Notes: generated by a model not told the origin, from the sequence alone. Positions 11,967 to 46,034 are shown, counted from the first letter of the stretch. The stretch is 64,000 bases of DNA from Myxococcota bacterium (GCA_030065855.1 JASJCT010000034.1:852-64851), one strand, 5' to 3'. Translations and numbers: made by a program.

Positions 11967-12458
11967 ATGTGGAATATCGAGACACAAGCGTATCAAGTTT
12001 ATGTAACCAACATTCCTCCTGCAAAGATGAGCGTGATGGATATTGCCAATGCGTATTGTCTTCGCTGGGAAATAGAAATTATATTTCGTCAGCTCAAGTC
12101 GCAGTTTCGACTCAGTGATTTTCCAACGCGAAAGGCAGTTGCCGTAGAGGCGCTAATATACGCTTCACTGATCACTCTAGTGGTTAGCAGAACATTTCTG
12201 GTTGAGCTGCGAAGACGATTTCCTAACCTAAAAGAGCGGATGCCGTTCGAGCGTTGGTCTGCAATATTCGCAGAATTTGCCGTATCGATCCTGCATTCTC
12301 TTTTGGAGAATCGCCGAAGAAAACAGCGACGAAAGAGCAACCTTTTAGAACTCATGTTTAAAGAAGCGATAGACCCAAATGCAGCACGCTCTGGCGGTTT
12401 AATAGGTAGAGTGGAAAATTGTATATCAATGAAAAGTTATGTATTTTCAAATGCTTAA
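11967..12458 (+). pseudogene. IS4-family transposase remnant (C-terminal ~160 aa)
   Basis: YCLRWEIEIIFRQLK gives the Y-2-R-3-E-6-K signature of IS4-family DDE transposases. The N-terminal catalytic part is absent. It lies head to head with the IS701 remnant. Confidence 0.7.
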
Positions 12459-13621: not shown

Positions 13622-15649
13622 TTATTGTTGCAAAAGCCTGCTGTGGGCCCCGTTCAAAAGGGCGTTTATGGCCAGGTCCAACACCTGGGGCAAGCTGGTC
13701 TTTTTCGTCAGGCGGCGCATCTTCTTGAGGTTTCTTTTGGCGATCCGATTTGCGATCCTCTGGCACCAGTCCTTAAAAAAGCCAATATCTTCGACCAGTC
13801 CTGCCTCATAGTCGTCACTGATGGCCAGGGCTGCCTGGATAAATGAACCATAGAGCGGGTCTAAGAGAAGCCCCTCGAGCTCGGTTGCCAGGTGCATTGC
13901 TCCAACTCTCTTGTGACAATCAGCTGCAGAGATAACGTTAAACAGGGCAATGCCTCGTTCTTCCAACCGATGAAACACACTGCGGCCCGGCGCAATGCCG
14001 TTCTGTTTGTAAACCGCTTTTTTGACCCCTTCGTAGACCGCCTGGGCGATCAGCTCCCCCATCTTCGAATGGCCGCCGGTGTTGTCTATGGGATATCCGC
14101 TACCTGACACGGCGATAACATTGTCTGTTCCCGTGCCAGTGGCTGGATTGAATCGACCGGAATAGGCGCTTCTTACGTCCAGATCAAAGAGCGCAGCAGT
14201 CTTTGCCTCGGTAGCAGTGAGGATCGCCCGGGTCCTGGCCCGATGGCTGAGCTCAGCGTTGGTAAGCATGATGATATTAATCGTGCCGGGCTCGTAATAG
14301 TCGCCAATGTCCTTTGACGCCATCATCGCATTGCCCCTCACACCAGCGGTCACCAGTGCATAGGCCTGCAACTTTTCGTATGCTTTGCTGACAACAGACA
14401 GACTGCTCATGTCCGCACCCGTATATAGGAAGCTAAAGTGCTTTCGGTGCTTTGCTATAGCGCTGCCAATTCGCTGCTTTAGCCCTTTGAGGCCAGAGTC
14501 GTGCATAGCTCCCCAGGACTGGGGTGGAAAGTAGTGGTTGCCCACAGCGCTTACTCCTTTTCTGGCCCCTTCGAGGGTCGAGGCGATCCGCTGGGGGGTC
14601 TTGAATTCGACTATCAAAGACTTGTGGGTAAAGTCGTCGATGCGGCTGTGATACACACTCGCCTTTTTGACATAATCCAGGTCGAGTTCGAGGGGTTCTG
14701 ATCTGAAGATGCCTTCTTTGTACACCCGGCTTTTGGGATCTGATGATGCCTTGGGATAAACGGTTGCATACAGCCACGACACCAGATGGGAAACACGGCT
14801 CGAAGCCCTGCAGGTCAGCTCGCAGGGGAAATAATAAACCCTGCTATTTTTTACCGCATCCACATCGCGCCAGCCCGGCTTCTTTGCAATGGTCGCGGCG
14901 ATCTGCTCGTCCCCTTGGCACCCGTAAATCACCTGCGGGTTAAACCCACGCCACTCCTCTAGGGTGACAGGAACGACATGTCCCTGTTTTCCGAGCTTCG
15001 GAGGTGTCCCGCCGGCAAGGGAGATAATCTCGTTTTGAAACGAGTCGTCACCAGGGGTCATGACCTGTTGCCTGCCCATCAGCCTCAGCACTCTCTTTCT
15101 CTCGTCCGGTCTGATTTTCTTGACTTTTTTTTCTATGAGCCCGATTTCCGCTTTGTTCTTCTCAACCAACGTCCGGGCTGCGTCCGCTCGGTCGAATATC
15201 CTGCCCAGCTGCTCGATGGTCCAAAACGCTTCGCTCAATGTGCGTTGATTAAGGTTGACGATCTGACAGGTCTTGCCGCGCTTGGCATTGTTGCCGAATG
15301 CCCGGCCCACCTCATCGTGGAAACCCGCAACGAAAATCAGATCGGGGTTTAATTTTCTAATGACCCTTACATTGGGGGCAAAAAATCCGCCGACGACCTT
15401 TTTGCGCACCACTGGCGAGGGAAAAGTATTGTGGTAGGTCACGCCCACCACGGATGGACCGGCGCCCAGGGCGTAAATCGTCTCGGTCACAGCAGGTACC
15501 AGGGAAACGACCCGCCTGGGCTTTTGGGTCAGCAGAACGGTTTCCCCTCGACTGTCAACGATCTTAATCGGGTAGGAAACCGCGCCCTTGGAAATCAGAA
15601 GGGTACAGACCAGGCCTACGAACATAGCCACAAAATGCTTTTTCATCAT
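13622..15649 (-). CDS. fusion protein: secreted BtuF/FecB-type (class III) periplasmic binding domain + CbiZ-like adenosylcobinamide amidohydrolase domain
   Basis: Signal-like MMKKHFVAMFVGLVCTLLIS. The first ~320 aa resemble Peripla_BP_2 (RVVSLVPAVTETIYALGAG..VVGVT...NPDLIFV...). The C-terminal ~350 aa carry motifs I associate with CbiZ (TAGVRGNA, GTINIIM, ATGTGTDNV). Start moved to ATG 15649. Confidence 0.65.
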   Translation of the reverse strand: MMKKHFVAMFVGLVCTLLISKGAVSYPIKIVDSRGETVLLTQKPRRVVSLVPAVTETIYALGAGPSVVGVTYHNTFPSPVVRKKVVGGFFAPNVRVIRKLNPDLIFVAGFHDEVGRAFGNNAKRGKTCQIVNLNQRTLSEAFWTIEQLGRIFDRADAARTLVEKNKAEIGLIEKKVKKIRPDERKRVLRLMGRQQVMTPGDDSFQNEIISLAGGTPPKLGKQGHVVPVTLEEWRGFNPQVIYGCQGDEQIAATIAKKPGWRDVDAVKNSRVYYFPCELTCRASSRVSHLVSWLYATVYPKASSDPKSRVYKEGIFRSEPLELDLDYVKKASVYHSRIDDFTHKSLIVEFKTPQRIASTLEGARKGVSAVGNHYFPPQSWGAMHDSGLKGLKQRIGSAIAKHRKHFSFLYTGADMSSLSVVSKAYEKLQAYALVTAGVRGNAMMASKDIGDYYEPGTINIIMLTNAELSHRARTRAILTATEAKTAALFDLDVRSAYSGRFNPATGTGTDNVIAVSGSGYPIDNTGGHSKMGELIAQAVYEGVKKAVYKQNGIAPGRSVFHRLEERGIALFNVISAADCHKRVGAMHLATELEGLLLDPLYGSFIQAALAISDDYEAGLVEDIGFFKDWCQRIANRIAKRNLKKMRRLTKKTSLPQVLDLAINALLNGAHSRLLQQ

Positions 15650-15742
15650 CTCGATACATTCCTTCTCAACCCACTGTCGCCACATACCAGAAAACTCAAG
15701 TATCTACGTTTGGGAATTAGCAAATTGGATTGCAACGACTAC

Positions 15743-17707
15743 TCAGTAATATGTGCTCCAGCCCAAATTGATGTGTGGCCATAGCTCCGTGCCAAAATCC
15801 TTTTCGTCTTTGCCGCCTAGGTCGGCAAGCTTGCCCGCAACGTTCCAGGTCCACGATTCACTTAGACCGAGTCGAAGATAAAATCCTATGCGTTCGACTC
15901 GGCGGCGTGGTGGCAAAGATTTTGCTGCTTGTTTATTCCGGTACTTGTATACATAGGCGATGTACACTGCTTGAGACAATCCGATTCCCCACCGAGATCG
16001 TTCGTAGTCTGAAGGATCGACCCGATCTTGCCATGGTTTCTGGAGAATGGTTCCTTCCCATTTTGGACCAATACTCGCCGATAGGCGCAGCACCAAACCT
16101 CCACGCTCAACAGCATGCCAGTCGATCATCAGGGGAAACTCAACTCCCATCCCAGTGGAATTCATCATTTCTGTCTGACCTTCATCCGGGGTTTCTGAGG
16201 GAGCGGCTATTGTTTCATTCACTTGCATAAACTTGATGAGTATGCCCCCGCCCAATTTTATTCGCGACCACCCACCCAAGTAGATGGTTGACATCATTGC
16301 CCCAGGTCCAAACCTTGTTGCAATCTTTCCAACTGGATGCACGTACCCAAGCTCAAGTTCAATAATACCCTTTGTATGGCGAGTACTTTTGTATTTTTCA
16401 AACAGGTCTTCATCATACTTGCGTGAGGATCGCACAATATCCCAATTTTCTCCTGAGTTTTTAGTAATCGCTACTAGCCCCCACGAACCAACAATAATTC
16501 CTTTTGTCTCGTCGATCCGAGAGGCGTTGATTGCCGCCGGAACAGGTTGTGTTTTTTCCTCTATTTCATCGTAAAAATTTAGGAATTGCCAATTCAATCC
16601 ATCGCTCGTTTGTATTGCCGGACCATCCAGTGTTGTCACGACTCCGGATGTGGGTGTCATCATTGCTATGCGGAAGAGGTCTTCTTTAACCTCAGTATCA
16701 ATTTTTTGCCATGTTCTTCCACCATCCACCGATTTCATCAAGAGACCACCTTGGCCACACAGAAATCCCAATGATGGATTTAAAAACTGCACGTCCAATA
16801 GATCCCAGGTGTATTCTAGTTGCATCGAATCAAAGGTTTTTCCTCCGTCTTGGGTGCGCAAAACAGTCCCCCCCCTGCCCACCAACCAAGCATGATTGGC
16901 GTCGAGAAAAAACATCCCGTTGATTTTCGCCGGAAGCTCGACAATACGCCACGTATGCCCTTGGTCCTTTGAATGCAAGAGCCCCCAACCATATAGTATC
17001 CAGGCGTTGTCTCGACCCACATAGGAGACCTCTAAAAATTCGATCTCACTGATTCTACCAGGAGAAACAAACTTGGGTATTTTCGGTAGATATGAAATTA
17101 GTTGACCAAGCTCCTTTTCGAGCACAGCTACGTCTGCTGGCTCTTCATCTGGTATTAGCGTTTGATTGGGAGTGGATTGCCCATCTGGATCTTCTGAGGG
17201 AGAGGACACCGCTGCTGTAGGAGTAGCGTCACTTTCATGCGCCTCTTTTTCTTCTGCTTCTGACCTTATTCTAGCGATCTCCTTGTTTAACAACTCTATT
17301 CTCTCTTCATACCGCTTGATTTGTGGATTTCGTACTCGACTAGAGGGGACCCAGTGCTTTCCACCATCGCTGCTGGTCAGGATCTGACCGTGTGTTCCAA
17401 CCGCAACGCCATGTTGGCGATCGGCAAATGACACCGAACGCAGAATGCGTTCTTCCGGGAGTTTTGAACGATGCTGGAGTTCCCAGGTAACACCGCTGTC
17501 ATTAGTGTGAATAATGATGCCATTTCTTCCTACAGCCCATCCTGTCTGTTCATCGACAAAAGAGGTGTCAAAGAGCGCTTCAAATGTAGGCTCCTCTGCA
17601 TTCTCTTCTTCAAGGTTTCGTTGTTCTGCCACGGCCGCTCTGGTCGCCAATTGCCAAGCCACCATCCCCATACTTAGAAACAATCCGTATCTCGAAATAC
17701 GATACAT
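15743..17707 (-). CDS. secreted BNR/Asp-box beta-propeller protein (Ycf48-like) with C-terminal beta-barrel-like module
   Basis: Signal peptide. About 7 Asp-box motifs (DSGVTW, SDGGKHW, DQGHTW, QDGGKTF, VDGGRTW, SDGLNW, NSGENW). The C-terminal ~200 aa have alternating hydrophobic strands and end in ...INLGWSTYY (aromatic terminus typical of OMPs). Confidence 0.65.
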   Translation of the reverse strand: MYRISRYGLFLSMGMVAWQLATRAAVAEQRNLEEENAEEPTFEALFDTSFVDEQTGWAVGRNGIIIHTNDSGVTWELQHRSKLPEERILRSVSFADRQHGVAVGTHGQILTSSDGGKHWVPSSRVRNPQIKRYEERIELLNKEIARIRSEAEEKEAHESDATPTAAVSSPSEDPDGQSTPNQTLIPDEEPADVAVLEKELGQLISYLPKIPKFVSPGRISEIEFLEVSYVGRDNAWILYGWGLLHSKDQGHTWRIVELPAKINGMFFLDANHAWLVGRGGTVLRTQDGGKTFDSMQLEYTWDLLDVQFLNPSLGFLCGQGGLLMKSVDGGRTWQKIDTEVKEDLFRIAMMTPTSGVVTTLDGPAIQTSDGLNWQFLNFYDEIEEKTQPVPAAINASRIDETKGIIVGSWGLVAITKNSGENWDIVRSSRKYDEDLFEKYKSTRHTKGIIELELGYVHPVGKIATRFGPGAMMSTIYLGGWSRIKLGGGILIKFMQVNETIAAPSETPDEGQTEMMNSTGMGVEFPLMIDWHAVERGGLVLRLSASIGPKWEGTILQKPWQDRVDPSDYERSRWGIGLSQAVYIAYVYKYRNKQAAKSLPPRRRVERIGFYLRLGLSESWTWNVAGKLADLGGKDEKDFGTELWPHINLGWSTYY

Positions 17708-17725: not shown

Positions 17726-19462
17726 TTACTTCGGTGTTACAAACAAGATACCCGTCTTACTCTTATAAAATGCGATCCCCAGAGAAATCGAAGGCCAAAA
17801 TTCAGTCGTTGTTTGTTGGTTACCGCGAAATTCAAAGGTCCAGGCTTGTAACAATTGAAATTTAATCTCAAGCCCCAACTTTACGTAAGTGCTTTCCCCA
17901 CCATATTGTACTGGAACACACAATCCCACAGTTAGTTCTTCAGCTGAGAACACTCCTCCCCTGTGCTCCGTGTCATCTATGGACAGGGATTTTTCTTCAA
18001 AATGGTGCCTGCGATAGTATGGTCCGAGAATCAACCCAACTGATAATATCCAACGCCGATTATGAACAAGAATTCGCCTTAATACGCCCCCTAGGCCGAT
18101 AGTCATACTATCGCCATTGACTTTTTTCTCCAGCAACAAGTCAGTGCTGGGATCGCGGACGGTAATCTCCCCAAATCCATTTGCTCCCCCCATATTGAAC
18201 AGCACTCCCCACTCCCAAGGTGTGTGGCGTAGACTCGTACGGAATACGTCCAGTGACGCTCCTGGAAATGTAACCCAGGGCACGCCAATAGGATGCAAGT
18301 AGCCAAAGAAGATTTCCCAACGACCTGCTGAATTGATTGGACTCAGAACGTGTACTGATTTTTCGATATTGCTCTCTTTTTGACTTTTTTGTACTGACCA
18401 AATACTACCTTTATCTTCAGAGAGCATAACGAGACCTCGCGTGCCCACGATAATGTACTCACCGGAACTGCCGAGCAATGATATAGAGCGCAATCCGCTT
18501 GGCTCTATTTGGGGCAGCGTCACTGGCACCCAATTGCTCAAACCACTCTTTATCAGAAGCTCTGTCTCAGTAATGATCAATCCACGTCCATTTGGTTCGG
18601 CCACTATCTGACGAATATCGCTGTCAGTTGCCAAGGGAATTGTACGCCAGGTAATGCCGCCATCTATTGTCTTCAGAAGAGTACCGCCTTCACCTACAAC
18701 AAATCCATGTTTGCGGTCGATGAAAAAAATGTCGGTAAGCTTGGCCGAACTATCGATCAATTGCGTCTGCCAAGTTCGTCCGCCATCTTGAGTCAGCCAC
18801 AGTGAACTCCATCCAAGTAGTACCCCAAAATTATCATCAAAAAATCTCACCTTGACCAACGCGGCATCATAACCGGCAAAGTAAATGGGAACCCAGGTCT
18901 TTCCAGAATCTGCGCTGAAGAAGAGTGCAGAAGTGCTAACGATCCAAGCACCTATTGGGCTGGTGCAATATACGTGAGTAAAATCTTGCTGGGCAACTTC
19001 TGATTCTGGCCAGTACTTTGGATCTCTAGAATCATCAACTAAATCATTGTGTTGGGTGACAGCAATGCGGGCACTCGGCAGCCAATTTTTGCCGCCGTCT
19101 TCGGTTTTCAGAATAGTTCCAGCAGTACCGACAGCAACGCCAAACTTGGCATTATAGAACGAAATCGACTTCAAAACCTGTGGGTGATGCTGACGATGAT
19201 AGGTTGACTCCCAATGTCCGCCACCATCTTCCGTGCAGTGAATCGCATTCTGACCGACAATTGCACAACCGGCCAGCTCGCTGAAAAAATCGACAGCCAT
19301 AAAGTTAGGAGAAATGTCAGTTTTGGAGCCAATCACGGCATATGAGTCAGCTGGTCTTCCAATTAGGATGAATCCGATCATTGCCCCAAGCAACCATCGC
19401 CGGACTGCAAAATCAGTTACCCTTTGTTTTGCTATCCTTTGTTCTGCTATCATGTAACTCAA
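17726..19462 (-). CDS. secreted BNR/Asp-box beta-propeller protein, paralogue of 15743-17707, with the same C-terminal module
   Basis: Asp boxes EDGGGHW, EDGGKNW, ADSGKTW, QDGGRTW, IDGGITW, EDKGSIW. The C-terminal region shares FGYLHPIG and EFWPSISLG with the neighbour (LGYVHPVG, ELWPHINLG). Confidence 0.65.
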   Translation of the reverse strand: MSYMIAEQRIAKQRVTDFAVRRWLLGAMIGFILIGRPADSYAVIGSKTDISPNFMAVDFFSELAGCAIVGQNAIHCTEDGGGHWESTYHRQHHPQVLKSISFYNAKFGVAVGTAGTILKTEDGGKNWLPSARIAVTQHNDLVDDSRDPKYWPESEVAQQDFTHVYCTSPIGAWIVSTSALFFSADSGKTWVPIYFAGYDAALVKVRFFDDNFGVLLGWSSLWLTQDGGRTWQTQLIDSSAKLTDIFFIDRKHGFVVGEGGTLLKTIDGGITWRTIPLATDSDIRQIVAEPNGRGLIITETELLIKSGLSNWVPVTLPQIEPSGLRSISLLGSSGEYIIVGTRGLVMLSEDKGSIWSVQKSQKESNIEKSVHVLSPINSAGRWEIFFGYLHPIGVPWVTFPGASLDVFRTSLRHTPWEWGVLFNMGGANGFGEITVRDPSTDLLLEKKVNGDSMTIGLGGVLRRILVHNRRWILSVGLILGPYYRRHHFEEKSLSIDDTEHRGGVFSAEELTVGLCVPVQYGGESTYVKLGLEIKFQLLQAWTFEFRGNQQTTTEFWPSISLGIAFYKSKTGILFVTPK

Positions 19463-19779: not shown

Positions 19780-19891
19780 ACGGAGCTATTCAAATAGGGT
19801 TCTATCATTTGTGGGTTCGCGCACTGCTTCCCGCTCGATGTAGATGCCCAAAACGTGCAGTACTTCCGAAAACCAAAGACCAAGGAGGCGT

Positions 19892-20158
19892 ATGATGGAG
19901 CGTAAGATGGACAAGAAAAAGATAGCTCTTCTCAGAAAATCACAGCGATCGTTTGTCTTGAAAGCACTCACGGATCCCAAGTTCAGACGGGCGCTCATCA
20001 AGACGCCTGCACAGGCGCTTGGCAAAAAGCAATTGAGCAAGGTGGAAGCCCAAGAGGTCGAGCTGGTGCTGGCCGCGGTTAAAGGCATCGAGACCCAGAT
20101 CAACACCATGGCCGACAAACTGCTCTGTAACAACGGCGGTACCTGCGGCATCGCCTGA
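19892..20158 (+). CDS. candidate RiPP precursor peptide (88 aa), NHLP-like leader, C-terminal ...LLCNNGGTCGIA
   Basis: AAGGAGG lies 5 nt before ATG 19892 (the ORF-track start 19844 has no SD). The leader segment FVLKALTDPKFRRALIKTPAQALG resembles nitrile-hydratase-like leader peptides. The only two Cys residues are in the last 12 residues. The stop is 3 nt before the first radical SAM gene. Confidence 0.6.
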   Translation: MMERKMDKKKIALLRKSQRSFVLKALTDPKFRRALIKTPAQALGKKQLSKVEAQEVELVLAAVKGIETQINTMADKLLCNNGGTCGIA

Positions 20159-20161
20159 TCC

Positions 20162-21289
20162 GTGCGCGACAATCTGCCGTCACATGGGGGGGACAATTCG
20201 ACCGACGTTACCCTCGCAGAGGTACTGGTGGCCAACACCTGGGAGTGCAACCTCGCCTGCACTTACTGTTTCCTGGCCGACCGAACCCGGGCTGCACCAG
20301 GATCCCCCATGTCGCCCGAGCTGGCAAGACAGGTGATCGACGGGCTCGACCAGGGGCTCGACGAGATAGAGACCATCTGCGTTCACTTCTACGGCGGAGA
20401 ACCGCTGTTGAACCTGGCGGCCATGGAAGCGATGGTCGACCGGGCAGCGCACTTCCCCAGCGAGCGGTTTCAGTTCTCGATTACCACCAACGGCACCGTC
20501 GATACGCCAGCGGCCTTCGCATTGCTCGATGCTGGGAATTTCCAAGTGATCCTGAGCATCGACGGCCCCCGAGAAATTCACGACCACTGCCGACGGACCG
20601 TCACGGGCCGCGGCAGCCACGGCCGCGTGCTGGGGTTTCTAGATCAGCTGCGCTCTCGAACCCGCTGTACCGTGCGCGGCTCTGCTGTCGTTCGCTCGGG
20701 CTGGGGCTTGGCCAACGCCGAGGCATACCTGCGCACCTTGCCGGTACACCACATCAAGGCCCAAGCCGTTCGCGTGCCCCCTGGCGCGCCCTTTGATCTG
20801 ACCGCGCAGGAGCGAGATCGTTATCTCTCCGATCTGGAGGCCATCGGGCGCACGGTCATCGATGATCTCGAGCATGACCGCCTACCAAAGGACGATCGGT
20901 TCTCCAGCCGTGTCCTGCAACTGTTGACCGGCCGGGAGCGGACCACCTATTGCGGGGCCGGGCGCTCCAATTTTGGCATTACCCCGGACGGCACTGTGCT
21001 GCCATGCCTGCTGCTGGACATTGAGGATAATCGCCTGGGGCAGATTGACGAAGCCCCGGCCAGTTGGCGAGCAGCAGGTGCACATTGGACCTCGGTCCGC
21101 AAACCAGGCCGAGAATGCGAGGAATGTCCGGCATTGCCCCTGTGCGGTGGCGGGTGCCCGGCAATCGGCTCGGTATGCGGAGAGAACGAGTGCCAGATGG
21201 TCCGCAAGAACTGCGACGTGGCCCACATGATTTGGGATCACTTTCGCGATTGCCCTGAAACCCTGCTGGGCCTAGCCGGCATCTTTTGA
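20162..21289 (+). CDS. radical SAM / SPASM-domain peptide-modifying enzyme
   Basis: CNLACTYC (CxxxCxxC) near the N-terminus, GGEPLL, and a C-terminal Cys cluster YCGAG...LPC...CEECPALPLCGGGCPA typical of SPASM. The start is GTG 20162. An alternative is GTG 20228, preceded by AGAGG. Confidence 0.85.
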   Translation: MRDNLPSHGGDNSTDVTLAEVLVANTWECNLACTYCFLADRTRAAPGSPMSPELARQVIDGLDQGLDEIETICVHFYGGEPLLNLAAMEAMVDRAAHFPSERFQFSITTNGTVDTPAAFALLDAGNFQVILSIDGPREIHDHCRRTVTGRGSHGRVLGFLDQLRSRTRCTVRGSAVVRSGWGLANAEAYLRTLPVHHIKAQAVRVPPGAPFDLTAQERDRYLSDLEAIGRTVIDDLEHDRLPKDDRFSSRVLQLLTGRERTTYCGAGRSNFGITPDGTVLPCLLLDIEDNRLGQIDEAPASWRAAGAHWTSVRKPGRECEECPALPLCGGGCPAIGSVCGENECQMVRKNCDVAHMIWDHFRDCPETLLGLAGIF

Positions 21290-21295
21290 GGCCCC

Positions 21296-22513
21296 ATGGA
21301 TCTTACCCTATTGAAACAGCACGGCCTGGTTCCCAGCAGTGCCCCACCAGCCGGGTTCGTCGCTGAGGACGTCGCTTCTCGACCAACCCGCGTCCCCCAG
21401 ATGGCCCTGACGTCTCTGGCCCTGGACGTCTCTGGTGGCTGCAACCTTAGGTGTCGGTATTGTGCAGAGCAAGCCAGTCAACCCCAGAGACGCCCGATGG
21501 AGGACGGGTTGATCTCCGAGGCGATTCGTCTCTTAGGTAATAATTGCCCTGAGGGTTCGCGCGGCTCAGTGCGCTTGGGCAGTGGCGAGCCGTTACTCGC
21601 ATTGCCCCAGCTGCGCCGACTAGAAGCCGAGATCGAGGCATGCAAAGCATCGCTGGATGTTTTTCTGACCACCAATGGCATGCTGGTGGATGACACCACT
21701 GCAGACTGGCTAGCGGCCACTGACTGGCGACTCAAGGTCAGCTTAGACGGACCACCGGACATCCACAATGCCTGGCGCGTGGACGCCAGTGGCAAGGCGA
21801 CCTTTGCTCACGTCTCAGCCGCTGTTCAAAGGCTCGTGGATCGCTGTGCAGACAGGGTCAGCGCAACTGCTGTGCTGTGCCGTAGGGCGCAGCCCAAGGT
21901 GGTATTCGACAGTATAGCGGCTTTGGGTGTACGTCGCATCGAGCTCGTCTGCGTGGCGACCAATGACAAAGAGATACTGCTTTCTGCAGAGGACGTGCTG
22001 GCCTACCATGGGTTCGTTCAGCAGTATGCGGACACCCTTATCGGTGCCGATCTAGAGACGCAACCGATGTTGGTCGGTTTCGAGGAGGCTGCGCGCCGGG
22101 CAATGGGTTACGCTAACACAGACCTGCCTTGTGGCGCAGGGCGAACCTTGGCCGGCGTCGATGCTGACGGTGCGCTGTATCCGTGCTTTCGTTTTGTCGG
22201 CCTCGAGGCGTACCGCTTGGGTTATCTTCGGTCTGGACTCGAGCCCCAACTGCAGCATCGATTCTGCAACAGCGTTGGGTGCGCTACAGGGCAACGACAA
22301 CCGTGCCAGGACTGCTGGGCGCAGAGCCTTTGTGGCGGTCCCTGTTTTTCAGTGGCTGCGTTTTTTGGACCTGGCGCCCACGCACCGAGCAGCCTCCACT
22401 GCGCCATTCAGCTAGCCAACGCAAGGGCTGCGGTCAAGTACGTAACCCGTCAGCGAGAGATCGATGCAGCAGCGCTCCTACCACTGCTTCCGATCGAGAT
22501 TCCCCTGCCATGA
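21296..22513 (+). CDS. radical SAM / SPASM-domain peptide-modifying enzyme (second copy)
   Basis: CNLRCRYC, GSGEPLL, and a C-terminal PCGAG...YPC...CQDCWAQSLCGGPCF SPASM-type cluster. 405 aa. Confidence 0.85.
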   Translation: MDLTLLKQHGLVPSSAPPAGFVAEDVASRPTRVPQMALTSLALDVSGGCNLRCRYCAEQASQPQRRPMEDGLISEAIRLLGNNCPEGSRGSVRLGSGEPLLALPQLRRLEAEIEACKASLDVFLTTNGMLVDDTTADWLAATDWRLKVSLDGPPDIHNAWRVDASGKATFAHVSAAVQRLVDRCADRVSATAVLCRRAQPKVVFDSIAALGVRRIELVCVATNDKEILLSAEDVLAYHGFVQQYADTLIGADLETQPMLVGFEEAARRAMGYANTDLPCGAGRTLAGVDADGALYPCFRFVGLEAYRLGYLRSGLEPQLQHRFCNSVGCATGQRQPCQDCWAQSLCGGPCFSVAAFFGPGAHAPSSLHCAIQLANARAAVKYVTRQREIDAAALLPLLPIEIPLP

Positions 22514-23796
22514 GCCTACCGCGCGTCGCACTGGTAAAGCACCCCGAGCAATCCGAGTTCGCCTTTGGTGCCTACAGCCTGGGTGTGTTGGCCGCCTCGA
22601 TTCGAGATGTGGCCCACGTCAGCCTTATCGATGCCACGGATATGAGCATTGACGAGGCGATACGCCAGGTACAACAGGCCGAGCCCGGCCTGATCGGCAC
22701 AACCGTAATGGGTGGCAGCTCCATTCCCCAGGCTTCTGTATTTGTAGAGAGGCTCGTGGCTCAAACCGCTTCGCGACCCGTGCCTATTGTGGTTGGTGGC
22801 CATGGCGCGAGCATGCTCCCCAGAGCATTCCTCGAAGCAGGCGCAGCCGTTGTGGTCGTGGGAGAAGGCGAGACGAGCCTGCGCCAGATCGTTCAAACCG
22901 GCGCTCAGCCCGGTGCTCCGGGTACTGTATGCAAGAACGGCGACTCACTGGTGTGGGGACCGCCCCAACAGTTGATCAAAGACCTCGACGCGCTGCGCCC
23001 ACCAGCGCGGGACTTGATGCCGCCACCCAGGGACGGCATCCACCTGATGGAGACGAGCCGGGGTTGTCCTCATGACTGTTCCTTTTGCGAAACAACCCGG
23101 TTTTTCGGACGGCGCTGGCGCTGCTTTTCAGCAGAGCGGGTGCATGCAGAGGTGGCCCGGCTGGTGGAGGAGCACGGGGCGTGGACGATTCTGATCGCTG
23201 ACGACAATTTTGCGGCCCAGCCGAGCCGCGTCATTGAAATTGGCGAGTGTCTCTCCACTGGGCCCCTGCCCGCGTTGCTAGTGGTCTCTGCCCGTGCCGA
23301 CGACTTGTTGCGAGACCCGAAAGTCATCCCCAGCATGGCAGCGGCACGGATGTTGCGTGTCTGTGTGGGCGTGGAGACACTAGAGCCAGAAGCAGCGGCT
23401 CGGGCTCGCAAGCCGATCGATGCGGCAGTGTACCAGGAGGTGTTTGCCCAACTGCGCGCACACGGCATCTTCAGTGTTGCCTCGTTTATCGTGGGATTGC
23501 CAGGCCAGGTGCTCGACGAGGAAGAAACAGTGGAACAGGTAGTAGCCACAGGCCCTGATTCAGTGGTGTTCAACCCATTTGTACCCATGCCGAACACCCC
23601 ATTGGCTGCATTAGACCAGACCGCCGAGAAGAAACCGGCATTCATGCCCCAAACCCACCACGAGATTTCGGCCAAGCAGATGACAGCGCGTTTCTACCAA
23701 CACCCAAAGACACGTCAAAGGCTCGAACGCACCTCTGGAGAACCAGAAGTCCGGGGCATCCTAGCCCGGGCGGTCTTAAAACAGCACACAACTTAA
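22510..23796 (+). CDS. B12-binding-domain radical SAM enzyme (class B, methyltransferase-like)
   Basis: Start ATG 22510 overlaps the upstream TGA (ATGA). The ORF-track extension from 22183 lies inside the previous gene. The N-terminal ~130 aa form a Rossmann-like B12-binding region (IGTTVMGG...PIVVGGHGAS). The radical SAM motif is SRGCPHDCSFCE. Confidence 0.85.
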   Translation: MSLPRVALVKHPEQSEFAFGAYSLGVLAASIRDVAHVSLIDATDMSIDEAIRQVQQAEPGLIGTTVMGGSSIPQASVFVERLVAQTASRPVPIVVGGHGASMLPRAFLEAGAAVVVVGEGETSLRQIVQTGAQPGAPGTVCKNGDSLVWGPPQQLIKDLDALRPPARDLMPPPRDGIHLMETSRGCPHDCSFCETTRFFGRRWRCFSAERVHAEVARLVEEHGAWTILIADDNFAAQPSRVIEIGECLSTGPLPALLVVSARADDLLRDPKVIPSMAAARMLRVCVGVETLEPEAAARARKPIDAAVYQEVFAQLRAHGIFSVASFIVGLPGQVLDEEETVEQVVATGPDSVVFNPFVPMPNTPLAALDQTAEKKPAFMPQTHHEISAKQMTARFYQHPKTRQRLERTSGEPEVRGILARAVLKQHTT

Positions 23797-23981: not shown

Positions 23982-26075
23982 CTACTCCGTTTTCAGCTGT
24001 TTCTTTTGCAGCTCGGTTACCTTCTGTGAGAGCTCCTGAACCGATTTGATCAGCGAGCTAATCAACTCGGTATAACAGATCCCCAGCGTTCCATCGGCAT
24101 CTGAATAGGCTGCGTGTTCCACACCAAGCGCGTCTAATGTATCTTTGAACTCCTGCGCAATCAAGCCGTGATGGACACCGCCGCCTTTCTTCCACCGGAA
24201 CTGCACCGGCTTGAGGGCATTGATGAACTCAAGCCCCAGATTCTCCGGTTCGATTGCAGTTTTTTCGTTTCTATCTGATGTCTGAATAGTGCCGTTTTTC
24301 GCATAAACTCTGTACCATCTTTTGGATGAATACCCCAAATTCTGCTGTCCATCCGCACCAGGCAGCAGACCGCCATTTCGTCCAACCAGCCGCAGTACCT
24401 CGTGATTACCGTCAGATGAAAAGAGGAAATCACCGCCAGAGCTCGAATTCCCGACATCACTCGCAAATTCCATTCCGCCATGGCTCTCTAGCCTCAAACT
24501 TTGGGCAGTTGACATCGTTCTTTCCGCTATTGTCGTCGCTTCTATTGTCGTCGCTTCTATTGTCGTCGCTTCAAGCGTTGTCGCTTCAAGCGTGTGGGTG
24601 TGCCAACTGCTATTACCTACTCTACCCAGTGAATTGACTCGCTGCTCGGGATCTTCAATATGGATGTCGCTATGAATGTATGAACCGATCAGGACGAAGT
24701 TGGACTGTGGAGCGATACCCCCACAGCTCAGCTGCGGAAGCGTCGAACCGTTGCGTTTGGCCTCAAATCTCCCGTTAAGGAAAGTAACCCCCTCAACACC
24801 TTTGCCTTCGATCTTCAACAACTCAAAAATACTTACCCCTGACGGTGTGGTCTCTTGGAATATGCAATTGATAAAAAGGTTCCCATAAGACTTGGCTCTC
24901 CATAGCTCGGGTTGGGAAGAGATTTTCACGCGCTTGTTGTAGAGCCACAGACAGTGCTTTGTGCCTCGATATCGACAGTTGGTCCAGGTATTTTCGTTTG
25001 TCGCGCGATTATTTTCAAACGACACATCATTAGGTAAGTCATCCACATTCCCAACGATTAGCCCTATCCCATCTGCCCCTTCGGGATATCCACAAATGCT
25101 CTTAAACTGATTATTGATCGCCTCTGTTCGCTCATCACTGTACCTGTAGACGCGATGCGCGACTTGAAAGCCTCTGATACGGATATTTTCAAAAATGCCA
25201 TTGTACGTGCAGGTGTCCAGACCGGCGACAAATCCACCGCCGGCGGCGCCTGGAAGAATAATAAAATTCCTGGCGATTTGAGATCGTCCAACAAATGTAA
25301 TCGCTGCCTCGTTGGAGACAGTTCCCTGCTGATTGTTTCTTTCGATTATGAAACCCGCTGATTTTCGGTTAGTAGTATAAATGTAGGTATCTGCTGCCTC
25401 GGGTCCGGTGAGGCAGAGCTTTTGCTTTTCAAAACATATCGTACTTGTCGGCCTTAAAAATATGGGGGAACTAGGGAGTTTGACGGTGATAGTGGGTTCC
25501 TCGGGATCATCAGGTTCATCTAAATCGATGAGGGCATTGACAAAGTCAACGACTCGCTGAAACGCTTGGGTGTCGTCTTCGAAGCCGTCGGCTGTCACAC
25601 CAAACCACTTCACGTGAATTGTGCCCTGCTGATAAATTCGCTTCCATCGGCCCTGGCCTATGTTTGAATTGATGACCGTCCCTCCATCGTCGGCTGCTTG
25701 GTCTCCTTCAATCCACTGAAAAAAACCTCCGCCACCGTCGTTTTCATTGTAGTAGCCCGCAACGTACACTATTTGACCATCGGCCATACCCGCATAGTTT
25801 TTGAGTTCACTATCAATGTTCGAGAGCACTGTGCAGCCATGAGCCCTGTGATGTAATCGGGTATCGTCCTCGCTTAAGTCAATACCTTTGACGGCGAGCG
25901 GCAGCCCTTCCTCACATTGTTGATTCCCAGCTGCGAGCAATCCAGCTGCACCAAAGCCAGCATAAGTCAGGAACTGCCGTCGACTGTTTTCTCGTTTTTC
26001 ATCGACGGTGGATTCAGTTTGTTCTTCTGCCGAACCACAATCACTATTGATTGAAGTCAAAAATCGCTTAACCAT
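23982..26075 (-). CDS. Tat-signal secreted tailspike-like protein: pectate-lyase-type beta-helix + C-terminal peptidase S74 intramolecular chaperone domain
   Basis: SRRQFLTYAGFGAAGLLAAG (twin-arginine). IHVKWFGVTADGFEDDTQAFQRVVDF (Pectate_lyase_3-like start of the beta-helix). The C-terminus SDRNEKTAIEP..LGLEFINALKPVQFRWKK...HHGLIAQEF...YTELISSLIKSVQEL is typical of endosialidase/tail-fibre S74 chaperone domains. Start at ATG 26075 (GGAGG upstream). Confidence 0.75.
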   Translation of the reverse strand: MVKRFLTSINSDCGSAEEQTESTVDEKRENSRRQFLTYAGFGAAGLLAAGNQQCEEGLPLAVKGIDLSEDDTRLHHRAHGCTVLSNIDSELKNYAGMADGQIVYVAGYYNENDGGGGFFQWIEGDQAADDGGTVINSNIGQGRWKRIYQQGTIHVKWFGVTADGFEDDTQAFQRVVDFVNALIDLDEPDDPEEPTITVKLPSSPIFLRPTSTICFEKQKLCLTGPEAADTYIYTTNRKSAGFIIERNNQQGTVSNEAAITFVGRSQIARNFIILPGAAGGGFVAGLDTCTYNGIFENIRIRGFQVAHRVYRYSDERTEAINNQFKSICGYPEGADGIGLIVGNVDDLPNDVSFENNRATNENTWTNCRYRGTKHCLWLYNKRVKISSQPELWRAKSYGNLFINCIFQETTPSGVSIFELLKIEGKGVEGVTFLNGRFEAKRNGSTLPQLSCGGIAPQSNFVLIGSYIHSDIHIEDPEQRVNSLGRVGNSSWHTHTLEATTLEATTIEATTIEATTIAERTMSTAQSLRLESHGGMEFASDVGNSSSGGDFLFSSDGNHEVLRLVGRNGGLLPGADGQQNLGYSSKRWYRVYAKNGTIQTSDRNEKTAIEPENLGLEFINALKPVQFRWKKGGGVHHGLIAQEFKDTLDALGVEHAAYSDADGTLGICYTELISSLIKSVQELSQKVTELQKKQLKTE
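24526..24592. repeat. 15-bp in-frame tandem repeat (4-5 copies) encoding EATT(I/L) pentapeptides
   Basis: tctattgtcgtcgct x3 then tcaagcgttgtcgct x2. The protein shows LEATTLEATTIEATTIEATTIA. Confidence 0.85.
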
Positions 26076-26150
26076 AAAAACCTCCATTTGGATTTCATTC
26101 AAACTATAGAAATAGAACCATTCATGATACCAACTGTCAAGAGATTAAAC

Positions 26151-26776
26151 CTAGCACTACCTGATTAGGCCGAACGCTTGATTAGCGCGGCAGTATGATG
26201 ATCTGCAGAATGTATGTCGACGTTTGCATCATTATGGGACAGTCTTGACGAATTTCTGACCAGCCACCTCGAAGGACTGGAAAACGAGCAGCGAGTAAAA
26301 GCGCTTGCTTGGTATTGTCAAGGATTGGGATTCGAGGTTGAAGCAAAAACCGCGCTTGGGCTAACCTCTGTTATGGCTCTAGGCTCGGTACAAGAGACGC
26401 GTCAGCGTATGCAGCGAGCACTGCAGCGCGGAAGGTTCTCTCACGATACGATCTTTTTGCTGCTTCAGGAGACAGTCTTCGAATCAGGGCAGATACAAGC
26501 TTACTGCATTGATGACACCGGCATCGCGAAAAAGCACGTAAGTTCAAAAAGATTGTTTGGCGAGTGGGCACCAAAGGTCCTCTCGAAGCTGCGTTTGCTG
26601 CATTGAGCGTGCGTAGCGCCGAGCGGTGAACCAAGAAATCTCTGCCTAGCGAAGAATAATTGAATGATTATCGAAGAGCTGTCGCACAGGTCCTCATTCG
26701 ATGGGTTGGCCACTATCCACCTTGCCAACGACCCTTCGAACGGTTTCCAGGAAGGTGGCTAATCAGGTAGTGCTAG
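26151..26776 (+). mobile_element. internally deleted IS701-like element with perfect 18-bp terminal inverted repeats
   Basis: ctagcactacctgattag at 26151-26168 is the exact reverse complement of ctaatcaggtagtgctag at 26759-26776. Only 626 bp lie between the ends, containing a truncated transposase N-terminus. Confidence 0.8.
26214..26606 (+). pseudogene. IS701-family transposase N-terminal fragment
   Basis: ...RVKALAWYCQGL...QRMQRALQRGRFSHD...AYCIDDTGIAKK matches the N-terminal region through the first catalytic-Asp region of IS701-type transposases. The sequence degenerates after DDTGIAKK and stops. Confidence 0.7.
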
Positions 26777-27916: not shown

Positions 27917-29851
27917 TTATCGGGTTCTTGCCTGTGGATGTGTACCGTCGAAATACGGTGTTTTCGGGGCGGGCGGCGGACTTCCCTTGCCTTCCTCCTC
28001 TCCCAGGGCCACCGCGCGCAGGGTGGTCCAGAATAGCTCCCCGGTCAATTGCAGCACCACGGGTTCGACTTTGTCCGGTGTATCCTGAGGCGTGTGGTAA
28101 ATACCGCTATGATCGCTCCAGTACTGGGTCTGCCCGTAGCAGTAGGAAATCCCGGCATTGTTGAACGCCGCGTGATCAGAGCCATTGTGCTCGCCGGAGG
28201 GGGCAATATCCCAGCTAAAGCCCTCGGCCTGAGCTTGGGCGATCATGGTATCGGTCAGCCAGCGATTGTCGCTTTCGTTTCCACCGGTAAGCTGCATACC
28301 CGTGCCAGATCCCGCGCCGACCATGTCCAGATTGAAATAGGCTTTGGTCTTTTCCAGGGGAAACGAAGGACTTGAATTGACATAGTGTTTCGATCCCAAA
28401 AGGCCCATCTCCTCCGCGTTCCAGGTGGCGAACACGGTGGTTCGCTTGGGGACAATATCGCACCATCTGAATTGGCGTGCTGACTCCAGTACCGTTGACA
28501 CTCCCGACGCGTTATCGTCGGCACCGGGGTACAGATTGCCTTGTTCGTCGATACCGAGGTGATCCATGTGCGCACCGATGATCGTCACCTCTGGATCTGG
28601 ATCTGTGCCGGTGATGGCGCCCACCACGTTGGCGGTTTCCACCATGGTCTCGTTGACCGTGACCGTCATCTTTGCATCGATGGCTAATTGGCGGCTATTG
28701 GGCGACAGGGTGGCGTCGATGCTTGCACTCCAGCCGTTCAGTGCCGGAATCGCACGGACCAACTTTTCGCGTGAGACATAGAACACCGGGAAGCTGCTGT
28801 CGTGATACGCTTCGTCGATGAAATAACGACGGTGATCGAAGTCCCTGCGATCCCGGAAATTCGGTACGATGATCATGCCGGCGGCCCCATGCTTCTTGGC
28901 GCTGGCGGCCTTGTAGCCAAAATCCCAAAGGCAGTGGGATCCTTCGCAAAGGGTGGGATCGACCGGGCAATGATTAAAAGTGTCGTTGTCATCGTTGGGT
29001 CCATAGCGCAGAGCGACGACGATTTTCCCGGTCAAATCCCCGAGTTTTTCATAGTCATTATAGCCTTTTGAGCTCAGCGGGCATTTCGGATACGCGCTGC
29101 GATCGTACGCCGGGACCACCATGCCATAGCCGGCAAAGACGACTTGGCCTGTGACGGAACCACTACCCGAGCGGTACAGAACCTTGAAATTATCTCTATG
29201 AGCAAATGTCTCTTTGCCGATGGAGAGGGAAGGTTGGCCCACGACTTTGAATACCTTGGTATTGAACACCTGTCGGTAGGTGCCGTTGTCTCCGGCTGGC
29301 TCCAGATTGTAGGCCGCCATGACCCCTTCGATATACTGCAATGCCAGCTCGTTGCCCTCTGTTCCCGGCTCACGTCCGGCAAACTCCTCGCTGGCCAAAT
29401 GGGCCACCTCGTCCCACATCCGATCGCCATCGACGACACCACATTCCCCTTCTTCTTCGGTATCTGTGTCTGATTCTGAGCCTGTATCGGTATCGGTATC
29501 CGCATCGGTGTCCGCGTCGGTGTCGGTATCGGTGTCCGCGTCGGTGTCGGTATCGGTATCCGCATCAGAGTCGGTATCGGTATCCGCATCAGAGTCGGTA
29601 TCGGTGTCCGCATCAGAGTCTGCATCCGAATCGGTATCCGTGTCCCCGTCAGCATCGCTATCTGCGTCACTGTCAGCGTCACTGTCGGCATCTGAGTCGG
29701 AATCCGTATCTGCGTCGCTATCCGAGTCACTGTCGGCATCACTGTCCGCATCCGAACCACTGTCATCCGGATCTGATGAGCAGTTAATAGTGTTAACACT
29801 GAAAAATACTAGAATTAGCACCATAAAGGCACAACGCATCGACTTCACCAT
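27917..29851 (-). CDS. secreted M28-family aminopeptidase with PA domain and N-terminal Asp-rich repeat region
   Basis: Signal peptide. About 100 aa of [11 protein letters not shown] repeats. M28 metal ligands read as [31 protein letters not shown]. Confidence 0.85.
29462..29776. repeat. in-frame Asp-Ser/Thr-Asp-Ala hexanucleotide/dodecanucleotide repeats (coding)
   Basis: Reiterated gtcggtatc / gtcagagtc type units encode (D-S/T-D-A)n on the minus strand. This also creates long spurious plus-strand ORFs. Confidence 0.85.
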
Positions 29852-45810: not shown

Positions 45811-46034
45811 CAAATCTCCATTCTCATTCACACTGTCGTATCAGCCGCGATACACGAACCTCTCTATCAATACCAAATACCGGGGTGAGAACAAAGTATT
45901 GGGTGCCAGACCCGTCAAAATCCCCCTGCCCCCTTGGCCAAAGAGGGCGTTTATGACCCATCACTCATCACTTGACGAGGTACGATGTGCTTCTGGCCCC
46001 TTTGCCGATAATTTGATATTATCTCGCTAGACGA

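Follow-up and report, generated by a model that had tools for sequence, protein, structure and literature searches.

A compact four-gene radical SAM cassette with an NHLP-clan precursor in a Myxococcota bacterium: probably a RiPP-type maturation unit of a family not yet described

Introduction

Radical S-adenosylmethionine (rSAM) pathways that act on peptides synthesized by the ribosome and modified after translation (RiPPs) have been a repeated source of new enzymology and peptide scaffolds. Here we analyze a 3.9-kb cassette of four co-directional open reading frames (ORFs), located on the + strand at 19892-23796 of a 64,000-nucleotide (nt) stretch of DNA from a Myxococcota bacterium (GCA_030065855.1, JASJCT010000034.1:852-64851), which is called the window throughout. 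The genes are named A (precursor), B (SPASM-1), C (SPASM-2), and D (B12-rSAM, an rSAM enzyme with a B12-binding domain). We read the cassette, with a probability of roughly 0.7, as a self-contained RiPP-type maturation unit that has spread horizontally and whose family has not yet been described. The four genes are found together in widely different microbes and match no curated family, so that they probably make a modified peptide that is still unknown. That A is a precursor served by three dedicated maturases is very probable.

Several described systems resemble the cassette in part. The maturases of ranthipeptides and SCIFF peptides, such as CteB and PapB, are likewise two-cluster SPASM rSAM enzymes acting on a Cys-containing peptide encoded by an adjacent gene. 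This type lies nearest to B and C, PapB according to NCBIfam and CteB according to both PDB sequence and fold, and C carries the same seven-Cys motif. However, the scores of B and C are under half of the PapB cutoff (149 and 159 versus 340 bits). Furthermore, the leader of the cassette differs from that of SCIFF/PapA in belonging to the nitrile hydratase leader peptide (NHLP) clan, and its core holds one or two Cys instead of six, with an acidic residue upstream of the Cys. In contrast to the ranthipeptide systems, the cassette has two paralogous maturases that lack a RiPP recognition element (RRE), accompanied by a B12-rSAM.

Proteusin clusters likewise combine an NHLP-clan leader, rSAMs, and a cobalamin-domain rSAM in a compact arrangement with the precursor first. 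The cassette differs from them in its tiny, Cys-centered core, in having no dehydratase, N-methyltransferase, hydroxylase, or protease linked to it, and in an rSAM_nif11 match far below cutoff. The Os1348 family (NF038399), known from Pseudomonas sp. Os17 (PMC7726476), provides the best-scoring curated leader model, but the scores shown below stay under its cutoff and the C-terminal parts are unrelated. The term 'radical SAM' has no occurrence in the text of PMC7726476, and the Os1348 cluster was rejected as the same system because it is a different cluster. Another partial counterpart is the ChlB type of three-residue cyclophane synthase, an rSAM/SPASM enzyme with a length of about 375 amino acids (aa). 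One such enzyme has been crystallized with the precursor leader (9GM3), and the fold matches B at a TM score of 0.72; these synthases crosslink aromatic residues, and the sequence similarity to B is weak (53 bits).

SynChlorMet (ScmE/ScmF) and GeoRSP are likewise catalogued tandem rSAM/SPASM cassettes beside a small ORF, and a first-pass annotation of the window had suggested them as the nearest comparators. This suggestion fails on the best 25 families considered per enzyme in NCBIfam release 20: membership in SynChlorMet was rejected with ScmE at 42 bits versus 400 for C and ScmF outside the best 25 families of B and C, and membership in GeoRSP with no GeoRSP model in the best 25 of either enzyme. 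The same annotation had recognized no characterized family here, which agrees with our result that, the TIGR04085 SPASM domain apart, none of the four proteins reaches a curated protein-family cutoff in that release. No description of the cassette was found in the searchable literature by its features, organism, or leader and core strings; subscription-only papers and large in-silico atlases lie outside that scope, so that prior cataloguing without characterization is possible. Thus, an rSAM-modified RiPP with an NHLP leader is of a known kind, and what is undescribed is the precursor family, the fixed B-C-D set, the lack of an RRE, and the tiny core. Three radical enzymes working on a conserved core of ~10 residues without an RRE form a tractable target for new reactions and for RRE-independent leader recognition, and a cultured source strain exists, Chlorobium ferrooxidans DSM 13031.

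Organization and recurrence of the cassette

The four ORFs had been annotated as tightly packed and co-directional, with lengths of 88, 375, 405, and 428 aa, an AAGGAGG signal, gaps of 3 and 6 nt, and an ATGA overlap, and all of these features are present on the + strand, as listed below.

19882..19888, + strand: Shine-Dalgarno-like AAGGAGG, read from the sequence; 3 nt 5' of the ATG at 19892 and 6 nt 5' of the ATG at 19895
19892..20158, + strand: precursor gene A, 88 aa, or 87 aa from the ATG at 19895; NHLP-clan leader and C-terminal core
19952..20053, + strand: NHLP-like leader helix region of A, residues 21-54, VLKALTDPKFRRALIKTPAQALG...; the stretch matched by NF038399
20114..20155, + strand: putative core of A, DKLLCNNGGTCGIA; Cys79 invariant, Asp75 nearly so, tail Cys85-Gly-Ile-Ala
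20162..21289, + strand: rSAM/SPASM enzyme B, 375 aa, GTG start; CX3CX2C at residues 29-36 (CNLACTYC); CEECPALPLCGGGCPA
21296..22513, + strand: rSAM/SPASM enzyme C, 405 aa, ATG start; CX3CX2C at residues 49-56 (CNLRCRYC); CQDCWAQSLCGGPCF
22510..23796, + strand: class-B-type rSAM enzyme D, 428 aa; CX3CX2C at residues 186-193; SRGCPHDCSFCE

The public gene call for A starts at 19895 and yields 87 aa. An in-frame ATG further upstream, at 19844, would extend A to 104 aa, but it has no Shine-Dalgarno sequence. The stop codon of A (TGA, 20156-20158) is separated by the 3-nt gap from the GTG start of B at 20162, B ends at 21289 with the 6-nt gap before the ATG of C at 21296, and the ATGA overlap of C and D covers 22510-22513. 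For B, the public gene call (9071-10051 of contig L010) comprises 326 aa and starts 3' of the CX3CX2C motif. The orthologues of B are 358-394 aa long and align from the GTG start; these lengths favor the longer GTG form and mark the public call as too short, so that B, judged by these alignments, almost certainly starts at this GTG (20162). Three database relatives of B (P0060, P0088, and P0124) are likewise 326-aa calls.

The question had been raised whether the 88-aa ORF always travels with the SPASM genes, and it does: the order A-B-C-D was found in every related locus with sufficient DNA, in about 20 lineages. The complete order is present in JGI and Logan contigs (L001-L006), an ENA contig (L007), a Chloroflexia metagenome-assembled genome (MAG; L012), the cultured isolate C. 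ferrooxidans DSM 13031 (L013, 2908-6751; NZ_AASE01000028), and a MAG labelled Nitrososphaerota, an archaeon (L014), where proteasome alpha/beta, NifU/NifS, and AFOR genes flank the cassette. It is also present in a Ca. Thiodiazotropha MAG (L092), in L093 and L094, and in metagenome loci found by a precursor pattern from 14 sequences (L096-098, L107-110, L113, L114, L117, L119, L120, L124, L125, and L128); enzymes are absent from the loci of this last search solely at contig ends. A genome-contig scan gave at least three close loci among the matches listed, beside many distant Clostridia rSAMs. With the window proteins, the orthologues of B, C, and D share 37-62% identity, and the same gene order at such identities in all long-enough related loci is far beyond chance. 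The labels of MAGs holding the cassette or relatives of enzyme B comprise Chloroflexia, Nitrospirota, Anaerolineae, Acetobacteraceae, Ca. Thiodiazotropha, and one archaeon.

All-against-all clustering of the ORFs from nine loci left only A, B/C, and D (plus antisense shadows) in common, and no conserved protease, ABC exporter, immunity gene, or RRE/PqqD protein was identified across these nine. The flanks are wholly different between loci, and several contain mobility genes (Phage_AlpA, HTH_7, NikA-like, and DDE transposase). In the window, the enzyme genes B-D form a GC island of about 0.62 (0.60-0.65) between flanks of about 0.47 (0.45-0.50) on both sides, and the window proteins are singletons at 90% identity. 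Searching for bounding repeats around the cassette gave only short, chance-like matches. The GC island, together with the cross-phylum distribution, is consistent with horizontal acquisition, and these sequence features are likewise consistent with movement of the cassette as a unit.

The precursor family

A word-indexed search with A recovered five relatives, and a profile search recovered 91 in 1.84 billion representative proteins, 49 of them at E<=1e-10. These relatives are mostly 65-110 aa long and have a common leader, ...L-I-x-(K/R)-A-L-T-D-P-x-F-R-x-x-L-x-x-x-P-x-x-A-L-G.... The nucleotide differences in A, summed over 13 orthologue pairs, amount to 648 at codon position 3, 420 at position 1, and 297 at position 2, and each pair shows 20-35 synonymous codon changes. 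This codon-position bias and the synonymous changes indicate that A is a translated gene under purifying selection, and by these substitution patterns the precursor encoded by the small ORF is genuine and translated. The first-pass annotation had allowed for a small ORF without conservation; the 91 relatives and the coding-pattern substitutions speak otherwise.

The leader was compared with curated families in 51 members of the A family. Scanned singly, 48 of the 51 match NF038399 (NHLP clan, Os1348 family) over the helix region, and matches to TIGR03793 (NHLP leader) and TIGR04509 were found in 24 and 18 members, respectively. Among Pfam families, Frankia_peptide matches 22 of the 51 and NHase_alpha 10. 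Against the PDB, the A-family profile matches nitrile hydratase alpha (4OB1, E=1e-8) at the helix 'VVAKAWTDPEFKxRLL'; it is by this relationship that NHLP leaders are defined. The profile also matches, more weakly, 8TB1 (an NHLP-leader chimera) and 6LK7; the latter, probably the Os1348 crystal structure, has 85 residues and was deposited as a nitrile hydratase alpha chain. The A peptide of the window scores 26 bits versus a cutoff of 40 for NF038399 and 16 bits versus 50.9 for TIGR03793. Since the leader is homologous and the scores shown stay below the curated cutoffs, it is best placed as a clan relative forming its own subfamily; the homology that assigns it to the NHLP clan is clear, and it is not a member of the curated family NF038399 or TIGR03793.

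Conservation of the C-terminus is centered on Cys79, the sole invariant column in the alignment of 51 A sequences, which is directly preceded by two hydrophobic residues. An Asp occupies position -4 from this Cys in 59 of 66 A sequences, 47 of the 66 contain a second Cys, and Asn, Asp, or Thr is frequent 3-5 residues before the second Cys. The conserved C-terminus reads ...A-D-x-L-L-C-(A-N-G-G-x)-C-G-I-A (...ADELLCANGGPCGIA), and the core in the window consists of the last ~14 residues, D-K-L-L-C-N-N-G-G-T-C-G-I-A. Three types of tail can be told apart, and some members of the family have quite different ones.

Type I: ...ADELLC-(A/V)-(N/T)-G-G-(P/G)-C-G-I-A; includes the window, DKLLCNNGGTCGIA
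Type II: ...ADELLC-A-C-S-V-(T/A)...
Type III: single-Cys, for example ...SDYIFCIIDDDDKPVLA, ...PMIFCIEPPGGGPIYA, and ...ADQLLCANGPAEEVR

The element Cys-(G/S)-(I/V)-(A/T/G) is common to types I and II. Type I tails contain a Gly-Gly that looks like a site of double-glycine cleavage; it is absent from types II and III and therefore is no universal processing signal. Some members extend beyond CGIA, and since such extensions are tolerated, a free C-terminal carboxylate is not required. In one lineage, the B12 enzyme of a variant cassette A-B-C-D-C'-A' (L128, 7001-11432; L130, 1-5356) is followed by one more SPASM-2 paralogue and another precursor, and the precursors of this variant have a single Cys (...PMIFCIEPPGGGPIYA and ...PVIFCMIHNDPPY).

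Leader and core also occur within larger proteins. P0127 is a predicted 769-aa metagenome membrane protein with an N-terminal signal or transmembrane segment, an Ig-like region, and a second transmembrane segment, and its C-terminal end consists of four tandem leader+core units, each ...GDELLCANGGPCGI(G/A). One leader+core unit ends a larger protein in P0141 and P0194. These three may represent a multi-core precursor, a protein-embedded substrate, or a gene-calling artefact.

Given the conserved core and the lack of a linked protease or exporter, one may ask whether the product has an intracellular site of action. It could be a conserved intracellular entity that is not secreted, either an excised peptide-derived cofactor or metal ligand (compare pyrroloquinoline quinone and mycofactocin) or a permanent protein modification. 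The unusual conservation of the core across phyla suits this explanation, as do the nine loci free of linked protease, exporter, and immunity genes, the tolerated extensions past CGIA, and the leader+core modules of P0127, P0141, and P0194. These large fusion proteins, however, are metagenome predictions and possible gene-calling artefacts. Variation of the tails into three types and quite different ones is less expected of a universal cofactor, the distribution is patchy, the cassette looks horizontally acquired, and no partner oxidoreductase or user enzyme is linked. With these points on both sides, a purely intracellular entity appears distinctly improbable.

The SPASM enzymes B and C

The Pfam Radical_SAM domain scores above cutoff in B, C, and D. 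In B, Pfam SPASM reaches 23.0 bits (cutoff 21.5) and Fer4_12 is also above cutoff; in C, TIGR04085 SPASM reaches 45.8 bits (cutoff 27). Both enzymes contain the CX3CX2C motif and the C-terminal pattern CX9-15GX4C ... CX2CX5CX3C ... C that define the rSAM/SPASM superfamily, and the Cys residues of the SPASM motif are kept in 20 of 20 orthologue sets. A census of Cys over these sets gave exactly seven canonical SPASM Cys in C and nine conserved Cys in the C-terminal region of B. B and C are ~26% identical and their orthologues are never interchanged across loci, which identifies them as old paralogues. At E<=1e-20, a clustered database yielded 372 relatives of B, and each of the top 120 shares 53-62% identity with it. 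The only name given is 'radical SAM protein', for entries from Acetobacteraceae, Nitrospirota, Thiodiazotropha, and Anaerolineae MAGs. The NCBIfam families that bear on the function of the two enzymes scored as follows.

PapB (NF047865): B 149.4 bits, C 158.8 bits; cutoff 340; best NCBIfam match of both, below cutoff
rSAM_nif11 (TIGR04064, nif11-like peptide rSAM maturase): B 133 bits, C 136 bits; cutoff 518.7; second-best match
QhpD: B 132 bits, C 129 bits; cutoff 453
SCIFF maturase (TIGR03974): B 107 bits, C 104 bits; cutoff 425
anSME (TIGR03942): B 87.8 bits, C 80.7 bits; cutoff 349
ScmE (TIGR04250): B outside the best 25, C 41.8 bits; cutoff 400

The best PDB sequence match of both B and C is CteB (5WGG), a thioether-forming maturase, and the alignments begin at CteB residue 104 for B and 95 for C, that is, past the RRE domain. 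No PqqD/RRE family was detected by Pfam in A, B, C, or D at E<=0.01. The N-terminal RRE of the SCIFF/ranthipeptide maturases has no counterpart here, the rSAM motif being reached already at residue 29 in B and residue 49 in C. The orthologues of C have a short conserved N-terminal motif, P-P-x-G-F-D/E..., before the rSAM motif (window 21296-21440), which is not found in B and is too short for an RRE. The AlphaFold2 model of B (pLDDT 87, pTM 0.87) was compared by Foldseek, which placed CteB, anSMEcpe, and ChlB equally near, at TM scores of about 0.72-0.73. In the structure of CteB, the seven SPASM Cys leave one auxiliary-cluster iron open for the substrate Cys. By analogy, the seven-Cys arrangement of C would fit binding of the invariant Cys79 at an open auxiliary-cluster iron.

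The fold comparison bears on an explanation in which no peptide pathway exists, B and C being anaerobic sulfatase-maturases (anSMEs) or other rSAMs for proteins or small molecules and the small ORF being spurious. The B model superposes on anSMEcpe as well as on CteB (TM 0.73), and a sulfatase gene lies at 43393-45831, ~20 kb away. The TIGR03942 scores of 88 and 81 bits versus 349, on which an anSME identity of B and C was rejected, stand against it, as do the small ORF, which is conserved, shows coding-pattern substitutions, and is always adjacent, and the loci that contain the cassette with no sulfatase nearby. By these scores, the SPASM proteins do not fall into the sulfatase-maturase clade; their placement there, with homologous neighborhoods devoid of a conserved small ORF, was what the annotation had named as fatal to its own proposal. 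Collectively, co-occurrence and conservation largely refute the non-peptide explanation, which we regard as extremely improbable.

The B12-domain enzyme D

The annotation of a B12-binding N-terminal domain in the 428-aa enzyme was confirmed by Pfam, with PF02310 at 50.7 bits versus 32.1 over residues 26-127. Radical_SAM (PF04055, 63.3 bits) follows over residues 180-343, and D thus has the domain make-up of a class B rSAM enzyme, an N-terminal B12-binding domain and an rSAM core. Its best NCBIfam models are HpnR (104 bits versus 650) and ApyD (100 versus 750), then BchE, and no equivalog cutoff is reached; the best PDB sequence matches are AprD4, a 9CCB chain, CysS, and TokK. ApyD is a RiPP Tyr C-beta methyltransferase, a B12-rSAM with an RRE (PMC10635010), whereas D does not carry an RRE. 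Most simply, D would be a C-methyltransferase.

A C-methyltransferase beside an NHLP-clan leader could also belong to a miniature proteusin pathway, in which one or both SPASM enzymes would be epimerases introducing D-residues, a mass-neutral change, and the Cys would be a recognition or cluster-binding element. The proteusin toolkit of the polytheonamide pathway comprises an NHLP leader, an rSAM epimerase, and B12 C-methyltransferases. The cassette has the NHLP-clan leader and the B12-domain rSAM, TIGR04064 is the second-best match of B and C (133 and 136 bits), and the single-Cys precursors keep all three enzymes, which fits a chemistry without need of two thiols. However, the TIGR04064 scores are far under the cutoff of 518.7, and B and C are without the N-terminal ~90 residues of both the TIGR04064 model and CteB. 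The core of only ~10-14 residues around an invariant Cys is unlike the long cores of proteusins, and no further tailoring genes of proteusin pathways are linked. These differences make a proteusin-type pathway quite unlikely.

Proposed maturation of the core

The RiPP-like cassette of a precursor, two SPASM enzymes, and a B12-rSAM that the first-pass annotation had proposed is upheld by the NHLP-clan leader, the conserved Cys tail, and the constant co-travel with the enzymes. In such a RiPP-type unit, the N-terminal ~70 residues of A would serve as leader and the last ~14 as substrate. The NHLP-like leader may dock directly onto the RRE-less rSAM enzymes, as happens between ChlB and its own leader; direct binding is proposed because none of the enzymes carries an RRE domain. 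ChlB (9GM3) offers a precedent, being a SPASM enzyme without an RRE to which the leader binds directly, as far as the reference list of PMC12912966 indicates. The CteB/PapB-like enzymes B and C would each abstract a hydrogen from the core and most likely form Cys-centered crosslinks, namely thioethers joining Cys79, and Cys85 in those precursors that have it, to a carbon close by. The acceptor could be the conserved Asp at -4, an Asn or a Gly, or the Asn, Asp, or Thr located 3-5 residues before the second Cys; an acceptor N-terminal to the Cys has a precedent in NxxcB, where it is an Asn. PapB, which accepts different spacings, connects Cys to the carbon alpha to the carboxylate of Asp, Glu, or the C-terminus (PMC9413430, PMC12373016). 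Enzyme D would then most likely methylate an unactivated carbon in G-I-A, a small/beta-branched/small motif. Lacking a linked protease or exporter, the cassette would rely on unlinked genes for removal of the leader and for export, unless these steps do not take place. We infer leader binding, reaction types, and sites by analogy with these enzymes, and the specific combination of thioether(s) with C-methylation is tentative, the odds being somewhat against it.

Two simpler schemes were rejected. Formation of a ChlB-like cyclophane does not apply to type I cores, because these cores have no aromatic residue. One enzyme, or one thioether, per Cys is ruled out as a general rule, since the single-Cys metagenome loci keep B, C, and D; the contigs of P0137 and P0145 were left out of this comparison as too short.

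Several observations weigh against the RiPP-type maturation proposed here, or against its specific chemistry. The lack of a linked protease or exporter in nine loci is unusual for a secreted RiPP. Single-Cys precursors (L119, L124, L128, and L130) are still accompanied by all three enzymes, the SPASM pair and the B12 enzyme. PapB, rSAM_nif11, and QhpD score nearly alike, so sequence cannot separate thioether formation from epimerization or other radical chemistry. The natural acceptors of PapB are C-terminal to the Cys (PMC12373016), whereas the conserved Asp is on its N-terminal side. Finally, the top PDB match of D, AprD4, is a non-methylating dehydratase, and B12-domain rSAMs also perform non-methylation chemistry.

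A bolder version of the proposal would have the cassette make a very small, cross-phylum, Cys-derived product, or a permanent leader+core modification, with an intracellular role as cofactor, metal ligand, or redox element instead of an antibiotic one, and by new RiPP chemistry of the three RRE-less enzymes, which we consider unlikely. An example of such chemistry would be a B12-rSAM reaction beyond simple methylation on C-G-I-A.

Genomic surroundings in the window

At gathering thresholds, Rfam gave no family in the whole window, cobalamin and SAM riboswitches included, and neither a tRNA gene nor a sigma-70-like promoter match was found in it. The DnaB encoded at 267-1694 shares 84% identity with a protein of a 'Proteobacteria bacterium' MAG, 73% with one of a Polyangia MAG, and 64% with one of a Myxococcota MAG, which points to an uncultured, Myxococcota-like ('Deltaproteobacteria') host. 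A DDE_Tnp_1 fragment is called upstream of the cassette, at about 11967-12458, in the matching public contig L010, and a 130-aa ORF without a Pfam match lies downstream (26214-26606, + strand), which, going by its sequence, may be a transposase N-terminal fragment. Together, the two hint at past insertion-sequence activity around the cassette.

Corrinoid genes were noted near the cassette in two settings. In the window, a 687-aa fusion of Peripla_BP_2 and CbiZ (adenosylcobinamide amidohydrolase, corrinoid salvage) is encoded at 13622-15685 (- strand), ~4 kb upstream of the B12-domain rSAM. The cassette is directly followed by a corrinoid-protein/MTTB methyltransferase cluster in L001-L006. Neither is conserved across loci, and their proximity may be a coincidence.

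The direct neighbors of the cassette are on the opposite strand. Upstream, two tandem paralogues of 654 and 578 aa (15743-17707 and 17726-19462, both - strand) combine PSII_BNR/Ycf48-like beta-propeller repeats with a C-terminal region of no recognized type. The immediate downstream neighbor (23982-26102, - strand) encodes a 706-aa protein with a phage tail-fiber-type beta-helix, a C-terminal Peptidase_S74 intramolecular-chaperone domain, and a short 'TLEATTIEATTIEATTI' repeat; a Pel9A-like beta-helix protein is encoded upstream of the cassette in L003. Further downstream in the window, the gene at 27917-29851 (- strand) encodes an M28 peptidase with a PA domain, whose N-terminal ~100 residues consist of low-complexity (D-S/T-D-A) repeats.

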